Below, in pieces: positions 3,262 to 40,941 of a stretch of 42,231 nt of DNA. The DNA is taken from the IMG/VR virus record IMGVR_UViG_3300037419_000866, positions 1 through 42,231 of that record; one strand, given 5' to 3'. Numbering within the stretch: the first letter of the stretch is position 1; every line of letters starts with the position of its first letter. A program made the position numbers and the translations under genes. Source of the stretch: a virus. The notes beneath the pieces were generated by a model. The model was not told where the DNA came from, searched no databases, and worked only from the letters and a program-made list of their open reading frames with translations.

Positions 3262-4001
3262 GCTGCCTCCCGCATCGGCTCGCGGCCGTGCTCGGCCAGC
3301 ATTCGGTCGACCAGATGCATCAGGTACGCATGCGCGACGCGGCACTTGTCGTCGAGCCGGCGCTCCAGATCAGCATCGCGCTTGTACGTGATGCTCGTCA
3401 CGCGCATGGCCGGGTCGATGTGCGCGACCTCGTGCAGCTCTCGCTGTTCCCACTTGATCAGCTCGTCCGGCGTGTCGAGCATGACGTGCACGACCTCGTG
3501 CTCCGGCACGTCCCATAGCTTCATGTAGGCCCGGCCCTGCCACTCGTACATTGTGTCGTGCGCGTCTTCGCTCAGTACCGGGAACGTGCTCAGGTCCCAC
3601 GACACCTTGATGTCGATGGTCTTCGCGCCCGGAACGTAGATGTCGCATTCGCCGGTCAGGAAATCACTCACACGACGCTCGGTGTTCTTGCGGTAGTTCG
3701 TGAAGCGCTGGTTGTTCAGGAACTGGATGGCCGCGTCTTCGAGCGCAATACCCTTGTCCATGTACTTCGTGTCGATGACCTTGTGGTAGCTGAACAGGAA
3801 CTCCTTCGCCAGCGTCTTCAGGAACGTCTTCGCCCCGGCGGACAGCGACATCTCCTTGTAGGGCTGCAGGAGTTCCTTCTCGGCGTCGGTCTTGCGCGCC
3901 TTCGCCGCAATCGGCATCAGTTCGGCCGGCAGCAACGACGTGTCGATCGACTGCGCATCACCCATCAGCAGGCCGACGCAATGCGGGTGGAAGCGGATCA
4001 T
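3258..4001 (-). CDS. PD-(D/E)XK recombination exonuclease (YqaJ / lambda Exo role)
   Basis: 247 aa. The motif GECDIYVPGAKTIDIKVSW fits D...(D/E)xK. It lies immediately downstream of, and overlaps, the annealing-protein gene, which is the classic exo/SSAP pair. Confidence 0.65.
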   Translation of the reverse strand: MIRFHPHCVGLLMGDAQSIDTSLLPAELMPIAAKARKTDAEKELLQPYKEMSLSAGAKTFLKTLAKEFLFSYHKVIDTKYMDKGIALEDAAIQFLNNQRFTNYRKNTERRVSDFLTGECDIYVPGAKTIDIKVSWDLSTFPVLSEDAHDTMYEWQGRAYMKLWDVPEHEVVHVMLDTPDELIKWEQRELHEVAHIDPAMRVTSITYKRDADLERRLDDKCRVAHAYLMHLVDRMLAEHGREPMREAA

Positions 4002-4807
4002 TGGGCGAGCTCCTTCTCCAGGTCGTCCAGCGCGGTTTCCTGATCCGGCGTGAGTTCGTAGTAGCCTCGCATCGACTGCACGTCGTACTGGCCGTTGCGG
4101 ATCGCGTTGAGCGCGTTGGTGAACTGCTTCCCATCAATCGGCTTCTTCGGCTCTTCCTTCGGCTGCGGCTGCGGCTGCGGCTGCGTGGCCGCCTCGTGCT
4201 GGCGCAGCTCTTCCGGCAGGTCTTCGATGTCCTGCGTGAAGATGTCCGATGCCGCGGTGACGTTGAGCGTCATGGCGATCATGGCACGCTTGCAGGCCAT
4301 CTTGAGGACCGTGTTCGCCAGATCGGCCGGCTCGGTGCGGATCTGAATTTTCTTCTCGACCTGACCTTTCCATTTCGCGAACTTGAGACGGCGCGCATTC
4401 TCCGGCGTCAGGTCGAATTCTTCGGTGCACACGGCGCCGCGCCACTTGTACTTCTCCTCGCCGGAGGAGCACTCGCCGACGCCCTCACCCAGTGCGATGC
4501 CGGTCACCTGATGACGGCCCACGCACGTAACGCGATAACGGGCGACGTCCGGCGTACTCAGGTCCTCGATGCGGTATTCCTGCGCGATCCGGAACGTCAC
4601 ACACAGCACCTCGGCGCCCGGCTTGTACAGGGTCGGCTTCGGCGTGCCCGGGATCGTGCCGTAGTGCGTATCCTTCTTCATGATGCCCTGCATCACGGTC
4701 TGGACGAGGTTCACGCGTTCGCGGATTTCAGAAGCGGAGAAGCGGTGCACTTCACCAGCGGTCAGGCCGGCCACCTCGCGGCGCGGCATTTCGATTACGT
4801 CGTTCAT
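3998..4807 (-). CDS. Putative single-strand annealing recombinase (Rad52-like superfamily candidate)
   Basis: The start was set at ATG 4805-4807 (MNDVIEMPRRE...), with GGAG 6 nt upstream and an ATGA overlap with the upstream micro-ORF. It has the helix LANTVLKMACKRAMIAMTL typical of phage SSAPs, a QPQPQPQP linker, and is paired with the exonuclease. Confidence 0.55.
   Translation of the reverse strand: MNDVIEMPRREVAGLTAGEVHRFSASEIRERVNLVQTVMQGIMKKDTHYGTIPGTPKPTLYKPGAEVLCVTFRIAQEYRIEDLSTPDVARYRVTCVGRHQVTGIALGEGVGECSSGEEKYKWRGAVCTEEFDLTPENARRLKFAKWKGQVEKKIQIRTEPADLANTVLKMACKRAMIAMTLNVTAASDIFTQDIEDLPEELRQHEAATQPQPQPQPKEEPKKPIDGKQFTNALNAIRNGQYDVQSMRGYYELTPDQETALDDLEKELAQ
4161..4184. repeat. (GGCTGC)x4 tandem hexamer
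   Basis: Seen directly. It encodes the QPQPQPQP linker of the minus-strand recombinase ORF. Confidence 0.9.
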
Positions 4808-11958: not shown

Positions 11959-12522
11959 ATGACCGTAGCTGTACTTTTTGCAAGGGCAGACAGCAACTAC
12001 AAGGCCATGCCGAGCTGTGACGTCTTCGACATCGAGCGCGACGCGCGCACGTTCGCCGGCGGTATGCCTGTGGTGGCGCACCCACCCTGCCGGGCATGGG
12101 GTCGCATGCGCCAGTTTGCACAGCCACGCCAGGACGAGAAGGATCTGGCCCGCTTCGCTGCCGCCAACATTCGAGCTTGGGGAGGCGTGCTTGAGCACCC
12201 GGCCGAGTCCACGCTGTGGGGCGACCAGCTGTTGCCATTCCCCGGGCGCGCGCCTGATCGCTTCGGCGGCTGGACCATGGCAATCGACCAGTTCCACTTC
12301 GGGCACCGCGCTGAGAAATCGACTTGGTTGTACATCGTCGGCTGCCACCCGGACGACTTGCCGCCGATACCGCGCAGGGAAGGAAGCCCGACGCACTGCA
12401 TCCGGCCGACGAAGAGCTACCCGCGGCTGCCGTCCGTGACGAAAGCAGAGCGCGAGCACACGCCGCCGGCTCTGGCTGAATGGCTGGTTGAAGTAGCCCG
12501 CCGCTGCCAGCGCAGCATCTGA
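11959..12522 (+). CDS. Mini C5-cytosine-methyltransferase-like protein (187 aa) of unknown activity
   Basis: Motif order by eye: VLFARADS (degenerate motif I, no Gly loop), AHPPCRAWG (motif IV PC-type Cys), LEHPAES (motif VI ENV-like), FGHRAEKSTWLYIVG (motif VIII-like), VTKAEREHTPPALAEW (motif X-like). It has no target-recognition domain. Confidence 0.45.
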   Translation: MTVAVLFARADSNYKAMPSCDVFDIERDARTFAGGMPVVAHPPCRAWGRMRQFAQPRQDEKDLARFAAANIRAWGGVLEHPAESTLWGDQLLPFPGRAPDRFGGWTMAIDQFHFGHRAEKSTWLYIVGCHPDDLPPIPRREGSPTHCIRPTKSYPRLPSVTKAEREHTPPALAEWLVEVARRCQRSI

Positions 12523-12559: not shown

Positions 12560-12808
12560 ATGAATATTTACACCCGCCAGTTCGTGGCCATGTGCCCGAA
12601 CAACAACGAGTCGATCATCTACAACCTGCGCATCGAAACGCTCGATCGCATGATCCACGTCGAGCACATCGTAACTGCCACGGCGCTCATTAAGCAGGGG
12701 TACCACGAGCAGATCGCGGACGAGCTTCATCGCCGCTTCGGCGGCCGTCAGGTGCTGCGTGCGCACCACCACGGTGTCGACATCGAGACGATCCGGGAGT
12801 CGGCATGA
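12560..12808 (+). CDS. QueF-like T-fold mini-protein (82 aa)
   Basis: QFVAMCPNNNESIIYNLRIE aligns by eye with the QueF segment xFTSLCPxTGQPDxxxxxIxY (catalytic Cys), and GYHEQIADEL aligns with the QueF motif FHE(D/Q)C. The predicted beta-beta-alpha-alpha-beta-beta length fits one T-fold unit. It overlaps the next gene by ATGA. Confidence 0.45.
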   Translation: MNIYTRQFVAMCPNNNESIIYNLRIETLDRMIHVEHIVTATALIKQGYHEQIADELHRRFGGRQVLRAHHHGVDIETIRESA

Positions 12809-13566
12809 TCCATTACCACGGTCTGCCCATCACTCCGGCAACAGCCGCTGTGCGGGCGGTCAGCGGCGGCCATGCCTTCGTATCGTTCGCTCGGCCAGAT
12901 CAACTGACCATCGCACTGGAAGCAGCGCAGACCTTCGCCGTCGACAACGGCGCGTTCTCAGCGTGGCGCAGTGGGAGCCCGATCACGGACTGGTCGCGCT
13001 TTTACGATTGGGTGCAGGAGTTGCACCGGTACCCGCCGTTCGACTTCGCCGTGATCCCCGACGTCATCGATGGCAATGAGGCGGACAACGACGCGCTGCT
13101 GGCCGAATGGCCGTGGCGCCTGACTGCCCCGCACATCGGCGCGCCTGTGTGGCACCTGCACGAGTCCCTGGACCGCCTAGACCGCCTAGTCAGCCAGTGG
13201 CCGCGCGTGTGCCTGGGCAGTTCGGGCGAGTTTGCCCAGATCGGCACGCCAGCATGGTGGGTGCGCATGGCTCAGGCCATGGACGTCGTGTGCGACCGCT
13301 CCGGGCGCCCAGCTGCAAAGCTCCACGGCCTGCGCATGCTCAATCCGGATGTGTTCACGCGCTTCCCGTTTGCCTCGGCCGACAGCACGAACATTGCACA
13401 GAACATCGGCATCGATTCGGCCTGGCGCGGCACGTACACCCCGCCGACCAAGGAGGCGCGCGCGGCGCTGATGCGCGAACGGATCGAATCGCAGCAGTCC
13501 GCGATCTTTTGGGACCGCAAGGCTGCACCGATCCAAAGCCCGCTTTTCATGGAAGCGACAGCCTAA
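12805..13566 (+). CDS. TGT/DpdA-like transglycosylase candidate (253 aa)
   Basis: FAVDNGAFSAW resembles the TGT DxGGF substrate-Asp motif and FASADSTNIAQN resembles the FD(S/C) nucleophile-Asp strand. It starts with IHYHGLPITP, has no CxCxxC zinc site, and sits in the nin-like region. Confidence 0.45.
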   Translation: MIHYHGLPITPATAAVRAVSGGHAFVSFARPDQLTIALEAAQTFAVDNGAFSAWRSGSPITDWSRFYDWVQELHRYPPFDFAVIPDVIDGNEADNDALLAEWPWRLTAPHIGAPVWHLHESLDRLDRLVSQWPRVCLGSSGEFAQIGTPAWWVRMAQAMDVVCDRSGRPAAKLHGLRMLNPDVFTRFPFASADSTNIAQNIGIDSAWRGTYTPPTKEARAALMRERIESQQSAIFWDRKAAPIQSPLFMEATA

Positions 13567-14586: not shown

Positions 14587-15002
14587 TGGCTGGCATTCAC
14601 ACGTTCACGGCGCCTAAGGCGCAAGCGAAAATCAAGCGCATCCTGGAAGCACTCGCCGATCTTCCGATGACGCGCGACGAACTCCAGTGCCTGCTCGCGG
14701 TCTCCAAGCCAACGATGCGCCGCTACCTCACCTACCTGCGCAGCGAGCCAAAGCGTGTGTACATCAAGCGCTGGCGGTCATCGGGCTCCGGACGCTTCTC
14801 GCCGATCTACGCCGCCGGCAGTCTGCCCGACAAGCCAGAACCGATTGGCATGAGCCGGCGCGAGCGGAACGTGCTCCAGTGGCGCAGCATCAAGGCCGAC
14901 CGAGACCGACACGACCGCGTAAAGGCCGCAGCGCGCGTGCACACGAAGATTCAACGCACGCGTAAAACACCGAACGGCATCTTCGCCGCACTGGGGATCT
15001 GA
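14586..15002 (+). CDS. Winged-helix protein, paralog family member A (138 aa)
   Basis: The start ATG overlaps the ninG stop (TAATG). The sequence is ILEALADLPMTRDELQCLLAVSKPTMRRYLTYLRSEPKRVYIKRW and ends in KTPNGIFAALGI. Confidence 0.65.
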   Translation: MAGIHTFTAPKAQAKIKRILEALADLPMTRDELQCLLAVSKPTMRRYLTYLRSEPKRVYIKRWRSSGSGRFSPIYAAGSLPDKPEPIGMSRRERNVLQWRSIKADRDRHDRVKAAARVHTKIQRTRKTPNGIFAALGI

Positions 15003-15004
15003 CC

Positions 15005-15205
15005 ATGAGCATCCGCACAATACTCGCAGACATCGCCGCATCCATGGCCCGCAACGAAGCCGACGTCGCCCGCGCTGCCGAGAAAGCCGCTGCGTACCGG
15101 GGCCCGTGGCGTCGCAAGACCGACCCGGTCGACGTCGAGACGCGCGTGATCGAGGACCCGGTTGCGGACCCGCTCGCGCTGCACGGCCCGGAGGAACTCG
15201 CATAA
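15005..15205 (+). CDS. Hypothetical protein (66 aa)
   Basis: Track ORF lying between the two paralogs. Confidence 0.5.
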   Translation: MSIRTILADIAASMARNEADVARAAEKAAAYRGPWRRKTDPVDVETRVIEDPVADPLALHGPEELA

Positions 15206-15858
15206 TGGCCGACCCACGCACCGCATACCAGCGCGGCCGCATCCTGGCCGCTATTGCCGACGAACCACTGACCGCGCAACAGCTTGCGGATCGTCTGCAC
15301 CTGACCAAGGACGGCATCAACATCCACCTGAAAGTGATGAAGGAAGCGTCACCGCGGCTCGTGCACGTAGCGGGCCACGTCTACAACGCCGACGGCGGCC
15401 GGCCGGCGCCGAAGTACAGCGCGGGCGACCAAGCCGATGCGACCTACATCCCGACTCGCCAGATCCTGCAGGGGCGCAAGGATGTCGTTGATCGCACGTT
15501 CAAGCGTCTGGTTGAAATGCTCCAGCGCTCGCCGATGACTGCAAATGAGATAGGCGACGCGCTCGACCTGGCGCCAGCCCGGGCCCGCTGGTACATCAGC
15601 CAACTGCGCACCTGCGAGCCGCGTCGCGTGTACATCAAGCGCTTCGAGGTGAACTACGGCGCCTATCCCGCGCCTGTCTACGCCGTCGGCAATAAGCCGG
15701 ACGCCGTGTACACGCCGAAGACCCGCGCCGACGTCTATCGGGAGGTCATGGCCGACCCGGACCGCCGCCGGCGCGTCCTGACCCGCAACAAGCTGCGCCA
15801 CCTTGTCGCGAGCAAGCGCAAGAAGCCGAACGGCATCTTCGGAGCACTGGGGATATGA
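15205..15858 (+). CDS. Tandem winged-helix protein, paralog family member B (217 aa)
   Basis: The start ATG overlaps the upstream TAA (TAATG). It has two wHTH modules, the second followed by EPRRVYIKRF, and ends in KKPNGIFGALGI. The 3' ends of A and B share a near-identical DNA stretch of about 30 nt (ccgaacggcatcttcg..gcactgggga). Confidence 0.65.
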   Translation: MADPRTAYQRGRILAAIADEPLTAQQLADRLHLTKDGINIHLKVMKEASPRLVHVAGHVYNADGGRPAPKYSAGDQADATYIPTRQILQGRKDVVDRTFKRLVEMLQRSPMTANEIGDALDLAPARARWYISQLRTCEPRRVYIKRFEVNYGAYPAPVYAVGNKPDAVYTPKTRADVYREVMADPDRRRRVLTRNKLRHLVASKRKKPNGIFGALGI

Positions 15859-39093: not shown

Positions 39094-40194
39094 TCACCCG
39101 GCCGCAACGATCTTCCATTCGCCGCGAAGGTCATCATACTTGGCCGTCGTCGCCGCATGCTTGTGCCCCAAGATCATCTGCGCGAATTCGCCGCCGTACT
39201 CGTCCCGGTAGAGGCGCTCCGCCAAGCTTCGGATCTCATGGAACGTTACCGGCGTGCGCCCTTCTTTTGGCTTGACGCCCGCCGTCTCCCGCGCGGAAAT
39301 GAACGCCTGGCCTAGCCCTTTCCCATCGACGCGGTGTCCCGGCTTGACCGTTCCTGTGTTGCGCACGTGGTGCACGAGGAAATGGCTGGCAATCGAGTCG
39401 CGGCAGCTTTTGACCACGTCGGCGATCGACATTCCGAGCTTCGCCAGCCGGATTTCGCCATCGAGGGCGAGCCGAGTTTTCCCGCCGCTCTTCCCTTGGG
39501 CCACGTGCAGGCGCCCGTCCCGCCAGTCCGAGAATTTCATGGACAAGATGTCTTCACGGCGCTGTCCGGTGAGCAGCGCGATGTTCATGGCGTTCCTCAG
39601 CCAAACTGGGCCCGCGTCGCGGATCGCCAAAAACTGTTCGAAGCTCATTCGCTCGCGCGCGACTACGACGCGCGGCGCGCGCGTTGCATCGACCGGGCTG
39701 GCGCCGTTCTTGATCAGACCCTGAGTCTCGGCCCACCGGAATATGTCCTTGAGCCGGGCTCGCATCATCGTCGCGGCCGTCGCGCCGTGGGCCTCCTTGT
39801 ATTCCTTGAGGTATGTCGCAATCGTCTCGGTGTCGATGTCGGCCAAACGGCGCTTCGCGAAGGCCGTAGCCTCCAGGCGTCGCCAGTAGACAGCGTAGTT
39901 GATCAGCGTGTTTTCAGCCGGCTTTGTCTCCTCTGCCCACAGCTGCTTGTACACGGGAAGCCACCCTTCCAGCGTGTACTCTGTCTTCCCCATCACCCAG
40001 TCGACGAGCGACGAGGGCTCACGTGTCGCAAGCGCGGCATTCGCCTTGCGCGCCTCTTGAAAGGCATGTGCGCGGTCCCTGCCGAGACCCTTTTGCCTCT
40101 TCGTGTCGGGGTCCTTATAGTAGAAGTAGCCCGCCGGATTCTGGTACAGGTTCGGCGGGAAGCCACGGTTCTTCGCTAATCGTTTGCGGCCCAT
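39094..40194 (-). CDS. int: Tyrosine integrase, lambda Int family (366 aa)
   Basis: It has the N-terminal arm-binding-type motif FPPNLYQNPAGYFYYKDPDTKRQKGLG and the catalytic region ALLTGQRREDI...FHEIRSLA...LGHKHAATTAKY (R, H-x-x-R, Y). Confidence 0.9.
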   Translation of the reverse strand: MGRKRLAKNRGFPPNLYQNPAGYFYYKDPDTKRQKGLGRDRAHAFQEARKANAALATREPSSLVDWVMGKTEYTLEGWLPVYKQLWAEETKPAENTLINYAVYWRRLEATAFAKRRLADIDTETIATYLKEYKEAHGATAATMMRARLKDIFRWAETQGLIKNGASPVDATRAPRVVVARERMSFEQFLAIRDAGPVWLRNAMNIALLTGQRREDILSMKFSDWRDGRLHVAQGKSGGKTRLALDGEIRLAKLGMSIADVVKSCRDSIASHFLVHHVRNTGTVKPGHRVDGKGLGQAFISARETAGVKPKEGRTPVTFHEIRSLAERLYRDEYGGEFAQMILGHKHAATTAKYDDLRGEWKIVAAG

Positions 40195-40569: not shown

Positions 40570-40941
40570 TCATGAGGTGATCTCCTTGTGGTTTTGGCGC
40601 GCCCTCTGATCAGCCGCAACTGCATCGCGCTGGGCCTGGCGGACCTGCTCGGCGGTGTAGTAGTGGCCCGGCTTGCCAGGAATGTGCCACGATTCCAGCG
40701 CGGCCTTTGGCAGAGGCGGCAGGCCGTCCTCGCCCACGGCAGGAGCGCGGCGATTCCACCATTCAGCGGCGAGCGCCTTGGCGTCGTGCAGCGGTCCTTC
40801 CGCCGTGCAGTTATGGCACAGGACCATGTAGCCGTGGCCAGTGAAATGCTCGTGCGTGGCCACGTCGTTCGATGCGCAGAACGGGCAGTTTGCGAGTTCC
40901 GGCGCAGCGCGCTCGGCTTCCGGGTTGTGGTCCTTGCTCAT
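40570..40941 (-). CDS. lar: Lar-family restriction-alleviation-like protein with a C-terminal extension (123 aa)
   Basis: CPFCASNDVATHEHFTGHGYMVLCHNCTAEGPLHDAKALAAEWWNRR is the Lar-type zinc ribbon plus AIxxWNRR signature. About 60 extra C-terminal residues follow. Confidence 0.65.
   Translation of the reverse strand: MSKDHNPEAERAAPELANCPFCASNDVATHEHFTGHGYMVLCHNCTAEGPLHDAKALAAEWWNRRAPAVGEDGLPPLPKAALESWHIPGKPGHYYTAEQVRQAQRDAVAADQRARQNHKEITS

Follow-up and report, generated by a model that had tools for sequence, protein, structure and literature searches.

DNA modifications based on 7-deazaguanine shield phages against both restriction enzymes and CRISPR; newly found defence systems, GrwAB and the Dag glycosylases, target them in turn. 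In phage CAjan, a Δ-dpdA mutant, which lacks the transglycosylase DpdA, loses 2′-deoxy-7-cyano-7-deazaguanosine (dPreQ0; PMC6884629 Table 2). For bacterial DpdA, Asp95 has been described as the general acid/base and Asp256 as the nucleophile, and the enzyme needs the ParB-like ATPase DpdB (PMC10164549). Phages with DpdA alone form the largest catalogued group of DpdA phages; the Salmonella phages SPN3UB and BTP1, the Shigella phage SfI and the Vibrio phage Athena1 are all listed in Supplementary Data 1 of Hutinet 2019 (PMC6884629) as encoding DpdA without further genes of the pathway. The modification status of this ‘third group’ (‘DpdA only’) was termed ‘difficult to predict’ (PMC6884629). 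Here we analyse a viral sequence, IMG/VR record IMGVR_UViG_3300037419_000866 (42,231 bp, 63% G+C; the whole stretch is referred to below as the window), in which the gene for a DpdA homologue of 253 amino acids (aa) is overlapped at its start by the gene for an 82-aa protein with a T-fold related to those of QueF and QueF-Like (QueF-L).

QueF and QueF-L both use a cysteine on strand 1 to attack the nitrile of 7-cyano-7-deazaguanine (preQ0), giving a thioimide (PMC5485725). QueF carries the NADPH motif E(S/L)K(S/A)hK(L/Y)(Y/F/W), and the phage QueFs described so far all keep this motif and make 7-aminomethyl-7-deazaguanine (preQ1; PMC10516641). QueF-L, an archaeosine synthase, works on preQ0 only when this is bound in a polynucleotide, and it uses NH4+; with free preQ0 it forms a stable thioimide that does not turn over, with a dissociation constant (KD) of 8 μM (PMC5485725). 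Phage proteins formerly classed as ‘QueF-L’ turned out later to be QueFs bearing the NADPH motif, and in this 2023 follow-up none of the phage QueF sequences could be aligned with QueF-L (PMC10516641).

Results

A minimal T-fold protein related to QueF and QueF-L

A preliminary description of the window, made from the sequence alone, had proposed a two-gene unit for 7-deazaguanine modification of DNA, in which a transglycosylase-like open reading frame (ORF) is translationally coupled to a QueF-like one. Both ORFs and their ATGA overlap are present in the sequence, as are the motifs on which that description relied. In the 82-aa ORF these are FxxMCP (F8-V-A-M-C12-P13) and YHEQ (Y48-H49-E50-Q51). 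The AlphaFold (AF2) model of the protein (predicted local distance difference test, pLDDT, 95.9) has the β-β-α-α-β-β topology of one T-fold unit, the fold that had been anticipated from its length, with helix 2 formed by residues 49-60. When the model was searched against the PDB with Foldseek the top 12 matches were to QueF-L (5jyx and 5k0p; E from 6e-4, TM-score 0.70-0.80, probability 1.0), followed by GTP cyclohydrolase I (GCYH-I), the C-terminal domain of V. cholerae QueF (TM-score 0.75) and PTPS, the rest being noise. All the matches with E below about 0.3 were T-fold proteins. Among viral models the matches were two phage proteins of ~85 aa and a 111-aa metagenomic ‘Archeaosine synthase’.

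At the level of sequence, the sole family match of the 82-aa ORF is phrog_37496 (E 1e-28), for which no function is known. No Pfam or NCBIfam model matched at E<=1, the QueF model PF14489 included, and single-sequence and profile searches against the sequences of the PDB gave nothing meaningful, the hidden Markov model (HMM) of the family finding no QueF there. The family comprises 115 clusters at >=52% identity, and an exhaustive profile search gave 516 representative clusters at E<=1e-3, all annotated as hypothetical. Of 151 representatives, at least 95% share each of N2, Y4, F8, C12, P13, Y21, E35, E50, A53, H70 and R79; none of the 151 lacks Y4 or E50, and C12 is found in 150. Position 49 is His in 140 and Gln in the other 11, and position 15, three residues after the cysteine, is Asn or Asp in 143, with Asn in the majority. 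The protein is not basic, with an isoelectric point (pI) of 6.6. The many clusters of homologues, which for the larger protein number at least 7008, together with the conservation of residues in the small one, indicate that both ORFs are real genes rather than chance ORFs.

Purine and pterin ligands of T-fold enzymes are anchored at their 2-amino-pyrimidinone edge by an acidic residue with which helix 2 begins. A profile built from QueF-L sequences and the QueF of B. subtilis was aligned with the small-protein family using hhalign, giving a probability of 88.7% and E 2.6e-6 in a single pairwise comparison. In the resulting register Cys12 lies opposite Cys21 of QueF-L, the cysteine that forms the thioimide and the equivalent of Cys55 of B. 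subtilis QueF, and His49-Glu50 lie opposite His62-Glu63 of QueF-L, equivalent to His96-Glu97 of QueF. Glu35 pairs with Glu46 and Gly72 with Gly92. The pairing of the cysteines and of the His-Glu motifs, which had been made by eye, is reproduced by this profile–profile alignment. The segment E35-H-I-V-T-A-T-A contains no lysine, the family consensus here being E-(D/H)-I-x-(A/T)-A, and the NADPH motif is absent. With the NADPH site lost, the protein should not be able to reduce preQ0 to preQ1, and the earlier suggestion that the final base might be fixed as dPreQ1 is unlikely.

Since the general acid/base aspartate, the NADPH motif, the S-[FY]-R motif and the match to PF14489, a model that matches all QueF-L proteins, are all missing, the small protein is best described as belonging to neither QueF nor QueF-L but to a minimal T-fold family of its own that is related to both. 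The term ‘QueF-like’ used for it previously holds for the fold, the cysteine and the His-Glu pair.

The small gene and DpdA form a conserved unit

To follow the small gene across genomes, 104 loci containing it were compared: the window; the isolated phages Pseudomonas Epa33, Microcystis Mae-JY30 and Rhizobium RHph_X2_30; five loci on contigs that encode four homologues (one a Caballeronia arvi prophage, the other four assembled from metagenomes); 80 of the 261 positive IMG/VR contigs; and 15 genomes of bacteria (Massilia, Janthinobacterium, eight Pseudomonas, Cupriavidus, Caballeronia, Roseateles and Dyella). In 98 of these a DpdA homologue is encoded on the same strand no more than 1 kb away, with the small gene upstream in all but two, where the order is reversed. 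The identical 4-bp overlap occurs in 65 of the 104. The six remaining loci consist of three with a divergent DpdA-like neighbour of family phrog_15826, two that are truncated and one decayed prophage. Around the pair the flanking genes are otherwise mosaic, and the pair therefore moves as a module. Together with the ATGA overlap, which we read as translational coupling, this supports the view of the two genes as one conserved unit with coupled translation.

The phrog_15826 proteins, a family of unknown function with ~205 aa, take the place of DpdA after the small gene, again with a 4-bp overlap. They align with DpdA at 24% identity and keep its invariant DNG, PD, G and D positions, and are probably a further, unrecognised DpdA subfamily. 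One of these genes (locus L006) is followed by a PAPS-reductase/PP-loop-like gene, and in the Microcystis phage Mae-JY30 a PAPS-reductase-like gene is found just upstream of DpdA. The decayed prophage (L093, in Cupriavidus sp. UYMMa02A) is the sole locus in which the small gene lacks a nearby DpdA. It was considered as a possible case of independent function and rejected on account of its appearance: the ORF has lost its usual stop and gained a C-terminal extension of 49 aa, and an IS-type transposase gene and a QueD-like gene lie in its surroundings.

Transporter and QueD-like genes accompany the pair

In some loci other genes are inserted between the small gene and DpdA. A gene for a YhhQ/Vut_1 queuosine-precursor transporter is found there in three loci, and upstream of the pair in one more. 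A QueD/PTPS-like gene (Pfam E 5e-22) is inserted in one locus and a gene for a small helix-turn-helix protein is another insert. In seven loci the insert encodes a nucleoside 2-deoxyribosyltransferase-like protein (Pfam PF05014/PF15891, E 1e-7), which suggests that some forms of the cassette include the salvage of a base or nucleoside.

The small domain is also found fused to domains of the same kinds. It follows YhhQ in P0345; a QueD-like domain precedes it in P0236, P0243 and P0253 and follows it in P0254, in three contigs. In every context that could be read (P0345, P0236 and P0254) DpdA comes directly after the fusion. The fusion of a small and a QueD-like domain may constitute a hetero-bimodular T-fold enzyme. 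The fused and inserted QueD/PTPS-like domains are short and have an HGH zinc motif, and no other preQ0-pathway genes were found in the phages that carry them, on the short contigs available. On one contig with a QueD-like-small fusion a YpsA/DprA-like (SLOG-type) gene lies just past a frameshifted DpdA.

The 253-aa protein belongs to a known clade of short DpdAs

The 253-aa ORF carries FAVDNGAFSAW at residues 44-54 and FASADSTNIAQN at residues 189-200, which had been taken for the two catalytic-Asp strands of tRNA-guanine transglycosylases (TGTs). Its only cysteines are C136 and C163, hence it has no CxCxxC..H zinc site, as had been observed. The site is missing throughout the clade of 230-250-aa DpdAs in which the ORF falls, and the C-terminal insertion that bears it in bacterial DpdA is absent here. 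The protein matches the PHROGs family phrog_887, ‘queuine tRNA-ribosyltransferase’, with E 3e-73. No Pfam (including PF01702), NCBIfam or PADLOC DpdA model matched at E<=1, and nothing meaningful was found among PDB sequences by single-sequence or HMM searches. A tblastn search gave 107 phage records at 38-58% identity, many of them annotated as queuine tRNA-ribosyltransferase, and these include the catalogued SPN3UB, BTP1 and SfI, whose proteins are 50-54% identical to that of the window, and Athena1.

An alignment of 20 DpdA-family sequences, including divergent phrog_15826-type proteins, was compared with CAjan DpdA by hhalign (96.9% probability, E 1.8e-10, 153 columns). It pairs VDNGAFSAW with LDSGAFSAH and ASADST with YSCDSS of CAjan. 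Direct comparison with CAjan DpdA by phmmer/tblastn gave E 1e-8, with 26% identity over 181 aa. Neither Asp47 nor Asp193 varies in the alignment, even in the most divergent relatives, and the two correspond to Asp95 and Asp256 of bacterial DpdA. For the base-recognition residue, Asp130 in bacterial DpdA, the comparison is one of sequence register only: Asp86, in IPDVI, is invariant in the family yet lies opposite a serine of CAjan, and Asp89 lies opposite an aspartate. The AlphaFold model of this ORF, made from a shallow alignment of >=75%-identical homologues, is poor (pLDDT 57) with a regular β/α alternation.

Because of the match to phrog_887, the alignments with CAjan DpdA and the listing of its relatives as DpdA, we assign the 253-aa ORF to the known clade of short, zinc-less phage DpdAs. 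This half of the finding is real and is not new. Taken as a whole, the preliminary reading is largely supported. The pair had been called unusual and possibly undescribed; the DpdA half belongs to the catalogued ‘DpdA only’ group, and it is the T-fold partner that was previously unlisted.

Relatives that have no small partner (AB3P2, AH07 and BTP1, at 54-58% identity) interleave with partnered ones at 40-53%. In the Pantoea phage AH07, whose DpdA is 55.6% identical, the DpdA start is overlapped by 4 bp by the gene for a 440-aa protein annotated as ParB-like. No PADLOC model matched this protein, which may, by analogy with the bacterial system, be a phage counterpart of DpdB. Small upstream ORFs that are unrelated to one another overlap DpdA starts by 4 bp repeatedly. 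Two of them, gp36 of CAjan (68 aa) and an 82-aa Cys-rich, zinc-ribbon-like ORF of AB3P2, were considered as divergent copies of the small T-fold protein and rejected, with hhalign probabilities of 1.2% and 0.1%.

Setting of the locus

The window is a temperate phage or prophage. It contains an integrase gene and genes for DnaB, NinB and NinG, and the Lar-like gene mentioned in the preliminary description is present (Table 1). No homologue of FolE, QueC, QueD, QueE, QueF or YhhQ was detectable in the window, in line with the earlier statement for folE, queD, queE and queC. A marginal FolE match (ORF 2412-2939+, E 0.0018) was rejected as it is antisense to the clear NinB gene. Megablast of the locus against phage genomes gave no match. 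Directly upstream of the pair is a 187-aa ORF of the function-unknown family phrog_12600 (E 6e-69); such a gene adjoins the pair in only one of the 104 loci and is probably unrelated to the cassette. Downstream are two adjacent winged-helix (ArsR/MarR-like) ORFs, apparently paralogues, that share a C-terminal half with EP(K/R)RVYIKR(W/F) and a near-identical tail KPNGIF(A/G)ALGI.

Table 1. Positions of the features discussed, in the window and in the loci compared with it (L numbers).
Feature	Sequence	Position	Strand	Basis or remark
82-aa minimal T-fold ORF	window	12560..12808	+	phrog_37496, QueF/QueF-L-related
Cys12 codon, candidate thioimide-forming nucleophile	window	12593..12595	+	conservation and alignment to QueF-L Cys21
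His49-Glu50 codons, candidate anchor of the 7-deazaguanine 2-amino-pyrimidinone face	window	12704..12709	+	N-terminus of helix 2
GGGAG, Shine-Dalgarno-like site for the DpdA ORF	window	12795..12799	+	inside 3′ end of small ORF, 5 nt before ATG
ATGA overlap, DpdA-ORF ATG over small-ORF TGA stop	window	12805..12808	+	sequence
253-aa DpdA-type transglycosylase homologue ORF	window	12805..13566	+	phrog_887, short zinc-less clade
Asp47 codon (DNGAF motif), candidate general acid/base	window	12943..12945	+	alignment to CAjan LDSGAFS Asp
Asp193 codon (SADST motif), candidate nucleophile	window	13381..13383	+	alignment to CAjan YSCDSS Asp
187-aa ORF	window	11959-12522	+	phrog_12600
Winged-helix ORF	window	14590-15002	+	ArsR/MarR-like
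Winged-helix ORF	window	15106-15858	+	ArsR/MarR-like
Integrase	window	39094-40194	-	
Lar-like gene	window	40570-40941	-	
QueD/PTPS-like insert	L015	5249-5659		
Nucleoside 2-deoxyribosyltransferase-like gene	L071	5243-5644		among seven loci
Nucleoside 2-deoxyribosyltransferase-like gene	L064	5243-5644		among seven loci
Nucleoside 2-deoxyribosyltransferase-like gene	L067	5243-5626		among seven loci
Nucleoside 2-deoxyribosyltransferase-like gene	L023	2679-3047		among seven loci
P0254, small-QueD-like fusion	L110	636-1190		
P0254, small-QueD-like fusion	L111	654-1208		
YpsA/DprA-like (SLOG-type) gene	L109	1591-2097		
phrog_15826 gene	L006	5249-5875		metagenomic phage contig
phrog_15826 gene	L005	5237-5851		metagenomic phage contig
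phrog_15826 gene	L007	928-1554		
PAPS-reductase/PP-loop-like gene	L006	5872-6822		
PAPS-reductase-like gene	L002 (Mae-JY30)	3497-4327		
Small-gene ORF, extended	L093	5001-5387		
QueD-like gene	L093	6374-6880	-	
IS-type transposase	L093	7042-8136	-	
AH07 ParB-like gene	L107	182-1504		MZ501270.1 30474-31796
CAjan gp36	L104	29765-29971		68 aa, overlaps DpdA start
AB3P2 ORF	L105	1256-1504		82 aa, overlaps DpdA start

Discussion

We propose that the locus constitutes a mobile cassette of two genes for the 7-deazaguanine modification of phage DNA in which the small protein captures preQ0 for DpdA, and we would give this proposal an even chance of being right. The DpdA-family transglycosylase would swap guanine in DNA for a 7-deazaguanine base, which would have to come from the queuosine pathway of the host since the window has no preQ0-pathway genes. 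The small protein would act upstream of DpdA and on the base in its free form, capturing preQ0 that is made by the host or imported, probably as a thioimide of Cys12, keeping it from the host QueF and handing it to DpdA, either unchanged or after conversion of the nitrile to an amide or amidine. The near-invariance of the pocket glutamate and of the thioimide cysteine leads us to infer that the small protein binds preQ0, probably covalently. Given that QueF-L forms a thioimide with free preQ0 and does not turn it over, such a protein could simply hold the base. Action on the free base would fit the links to transporter, QueD-like and deoxyribosyltransferase-like genes, the coupled position upstream of DpdA and the non-basic pI. 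It is also possible, though we hold this only tentatively, that the small protein represents a new functional class of phage T-fold proteins, being either the smallest known nitrile-converting enzyme or a covalent ‘preQ0 sponge’. As a nitrile-converting enzyme it would, with the zinc-less DpdA, make up a ~1-kb two-gene hypermodification cassette for 2′-deoxyarchaeosine (dG+) or for dADG (2′-deoxy-7-amido-7-deazaguanosine), fed by the host precursor; as a sponge it would supply the phage transglycosylase with host preQ0 diverted from QueF and tRNA.

Several observations weigh against the capture of preQ0 for DpdA. The general acid/base aspartate, Asp28 of QueF-L and Asp62 of QueF, is invariant as Asp across the alignment of these two families and falls opposite Ile19 of the small protein, where Ile or Val is found, at seven residues after the cysteine, in 150 of the 151 representatives. 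The S-[FY]-R motif common to QueF and QueF-L lies within a deletion of the small protein. Because of the loss of both, thioimide chemistry may not operate in it, although the conserved Asn/Asp three residues after the cysteine might stand in for Asp28. HMMER profiles find no QueF relative for the small protein and the hhalign probability reaches just 88.7%. The profile searches proposed earlier bear out DpdA, through phrog_887 and hhalign, and align the small protein with QueF-L/QueF by hhalign, with no Pfam or NCBIfam match to either. Cys12 is also at the position of a zinc ligand of GCYH-I, the second-best fold match. Fold searches, likewise proposed, place the small protein with QueF-L; for DpdA the poor model led to TIM barrels of a generic kind alone (E >= 6e-3), and neither a TGT nor a DpdA was among the top 50. 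Most of the 104 loci are relatives at >=50% identity and the counts of linkage are not independent events. The small partner is present in only four of the 107 phage records with this DpdA clade, ~97% being without it. Lastly, of the ‘DpdA only’ phages that have been tested, 7-11 has dADG at 0.02% of G and Orion has no modification (PMC6884629).

The small protein could instead be a functional analogue of QueF-L, though we think this unlikely. DpdA would then insert preQ0 and an oligomer of the T-fold protein would form a thioimide with dPreQ0 in the DNA, to be resolved by free ammonium to dG+, a base known from phage DNA as the product of non-homologous amidotransferases. QueF-L is the best match of known structure, the thioimide cysteine and the His-Glu pair align with it, the NADPH motif is absent from both, and the action of QueF-L on polynucleotide-bound preQ0 with NH4+ would fit such a role. 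However, the conserved Asp28 is replaced by Ile/Val and, unlike all QueF-L proteins, the family does not match PF14489. Fusion to a membrane transporter of bases and to QueD-like domains that act on small molecules would suit a DNA-acting enzyme poorly, and the pI and the position of the gene upstream of DpdA also speak against it. From the transporter and T-fold-domain links, action on the free base is at least as strongly indicated as formation of dG+.

It seems distinctly improbable that the protein is a Cys-dependent nitrile hydratase, in which water would resolve the thioimide and convert preQ0, free or in DNA, to 7-amido-7-deazaguanine, hence dADG. The conserved Cys/His/Glu pocket with no NADPH site would be compatible with this, the polar residues specific to the family (N2, Y4, H70, T77, R79 and N/D15) could activate water, and dADG was unexpected in a ‘DpdA only’ phage, its source enzyme being unknown (PMC6884629). 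Yet that phage, 7-11, has no detectable homologue of the small protein, which matches only four phage records; no T-fold nitrile hydratase is known, and water is reported to leave the thioimides of QueF and QueF-L intact (PMC5485725).

A shade less probable again is a metal-dependent T-fold enzyme of the GCYH-I/QueD type, acting on a pterin or a GTP-derived intermediate instead of preQ0 itself and, for example, boosting the flux into the preQ0 pathway of the host. GCYH-I is the second-best fold match, QueF-L itself matches GCYH-I in sequence (E 1e-5) and the small domain is fused to QueD-like domains of the zinc type. By eye, Cys12 occupies the position of the GCYH-I zinc-ligand cysteine, with N/D15 at the position, three residues on, where the GCYH-I ligand is His, and His70 is at the end of strand 3. 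The fold match, however, covers only the core T-fold (target-normalised TM-score, TMt, 0.33-0.38). GCYH-I has ~190-220 aa and the zinc ligands Cys110, His113 and Cys181, whereas the small protein has a single conserved cysteine and its 82 residues are too few for the triphosphate-binding and N-terminal elements; the position of the ligand histidine is Asn/Asp in the family, and the majority residue, Asn, is a poor metal ligand. His-Glu is moreover a signature of QueF, with Gln-Glu found in GCYH-I.

We consider it very doubtful that the linkage, though functional, has nothing to do with base chemistry and that the small protein serves DpdA as a subunit with a structural or regulatory role (for example in targeting it to DNA or activating it), a T-fold merely by descent, since the near-invariance of the QueF-type pocket residues (Cys, Glu and His-Glu) in 151 diverse representatives points to retained ligand chemistry and the links to YhhQ and QueD-like genes also argue against it, even if translational coupling implies stoichiometric co-production, other DpdAs of the clade have overlapping upstream partners such as the ParB-like protein of AH07, and bacterial DpdA requires DpdB.

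The partner of DpdA is widespread: it occurs in 261 IMG/VR contigs and in 516 clusters, and bacteria such as Pseudomonas, Massilia, Janthinobacterium and Caballeronia carry it in prophages. The choice of modified base in the DNA of these phages may rest with it, and it offers a testable handle on which base these temperate phages install and on how the queuosine pathway of the host is tapped. If the small protein were a nitrile enzyme or a sponge, this would explain how the enigmatic ‘DpdA only’ temperate phages modify their DNA. It would also be the first QueF-L-type protein in phages, which the 2023 survey sought without success (PMC10516641), and would give nitrile chemistry a new, minimal scaffold within the T-fold superfamily; the cassette, at ~1 kb, would be a compact tool for installing modified bases in vivo.

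Comparison with known systems

In our full-text literature searches, the coverage of which is incomplete, no account of a small T-fold protein partnering DpdA came up. Of the characterised proteins QueF-L, known from Crenarchaeota such as Pyrobaculum calidifontis (5jyx, 5k0p), is similar in being a T-fold of a single module with no NADPH motif, in the alignment of its thioimide Cys, helix-1 Glu, helix-2 His-Glu and the Gly between strands 3 and 4, and in its place in the 7-deazaguanine pathway, beside or downstream of a transglycosylase of the TGT family. It differs in its length (109 aa against 82 aa, with an identity of 12-14%) and in having Asp28, the S-Y-R motif and a match to PF14489, whereas the small protein has invariant residues of its own in N2, Y4, Y21, H70, T77 and R79. 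While QueF-L is archaeal and is found with the tRNA-acting archaeal enzyme arcTGT, the small protein is bacterial-viral, is found with the DNA-acting DpdA and is sometimes fused to YhhQ or QueD-like domains. QueF shares the T-fold, the catalytic cysteine in FxxxCP and (F/Y)HE at the start of helix 2, but the window protein is half its size and has neither the NADPH motif nor an equivalent of Asp62.

Gat-QueC, ArcS and DpdC, accessory enzymes of phage and bacterial DNA systems whose genes adjoin dpdA and which settle the final base by converting the preQ0 nitrile to an amidine or amide, are possible functional analogues of the small protein, though they have no relationship to it in sequence or fold. 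Among the phage enzymes (DpdA1, as in CAjan and 9g, and group 3 with SPN3UB, BTP1, SfI and Athena1), the DpdA of the window aligns with that of CAjan over both catalytic-Asp motifs and is 50-54% identical to the group 3 proteins and, like the group 3 phages, the window has no preQ0 pathway; at 253 aa it is shorter than the DpdA of CAjan (306 aa) and those of bacteria (~400 aa), has no zinc site and, in contrast to the catalogued group 3, is accompanied by a T-fold partner. The phages that have DpdA with YhhQ (phiLM21, CDKM15 and eHP-6; Hutinet 2019 Supplementary Data 1) similarly combine a transglycosylase with scavenging of the precursor and no pathway. The window has no YhhQ gene, and its T-fold protein is an extra component not listed for these phages. 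The finding is thus one of a known system, phage DpdA working on host preQ0, joined by a new and widespread accessory component of a new T-fold family.

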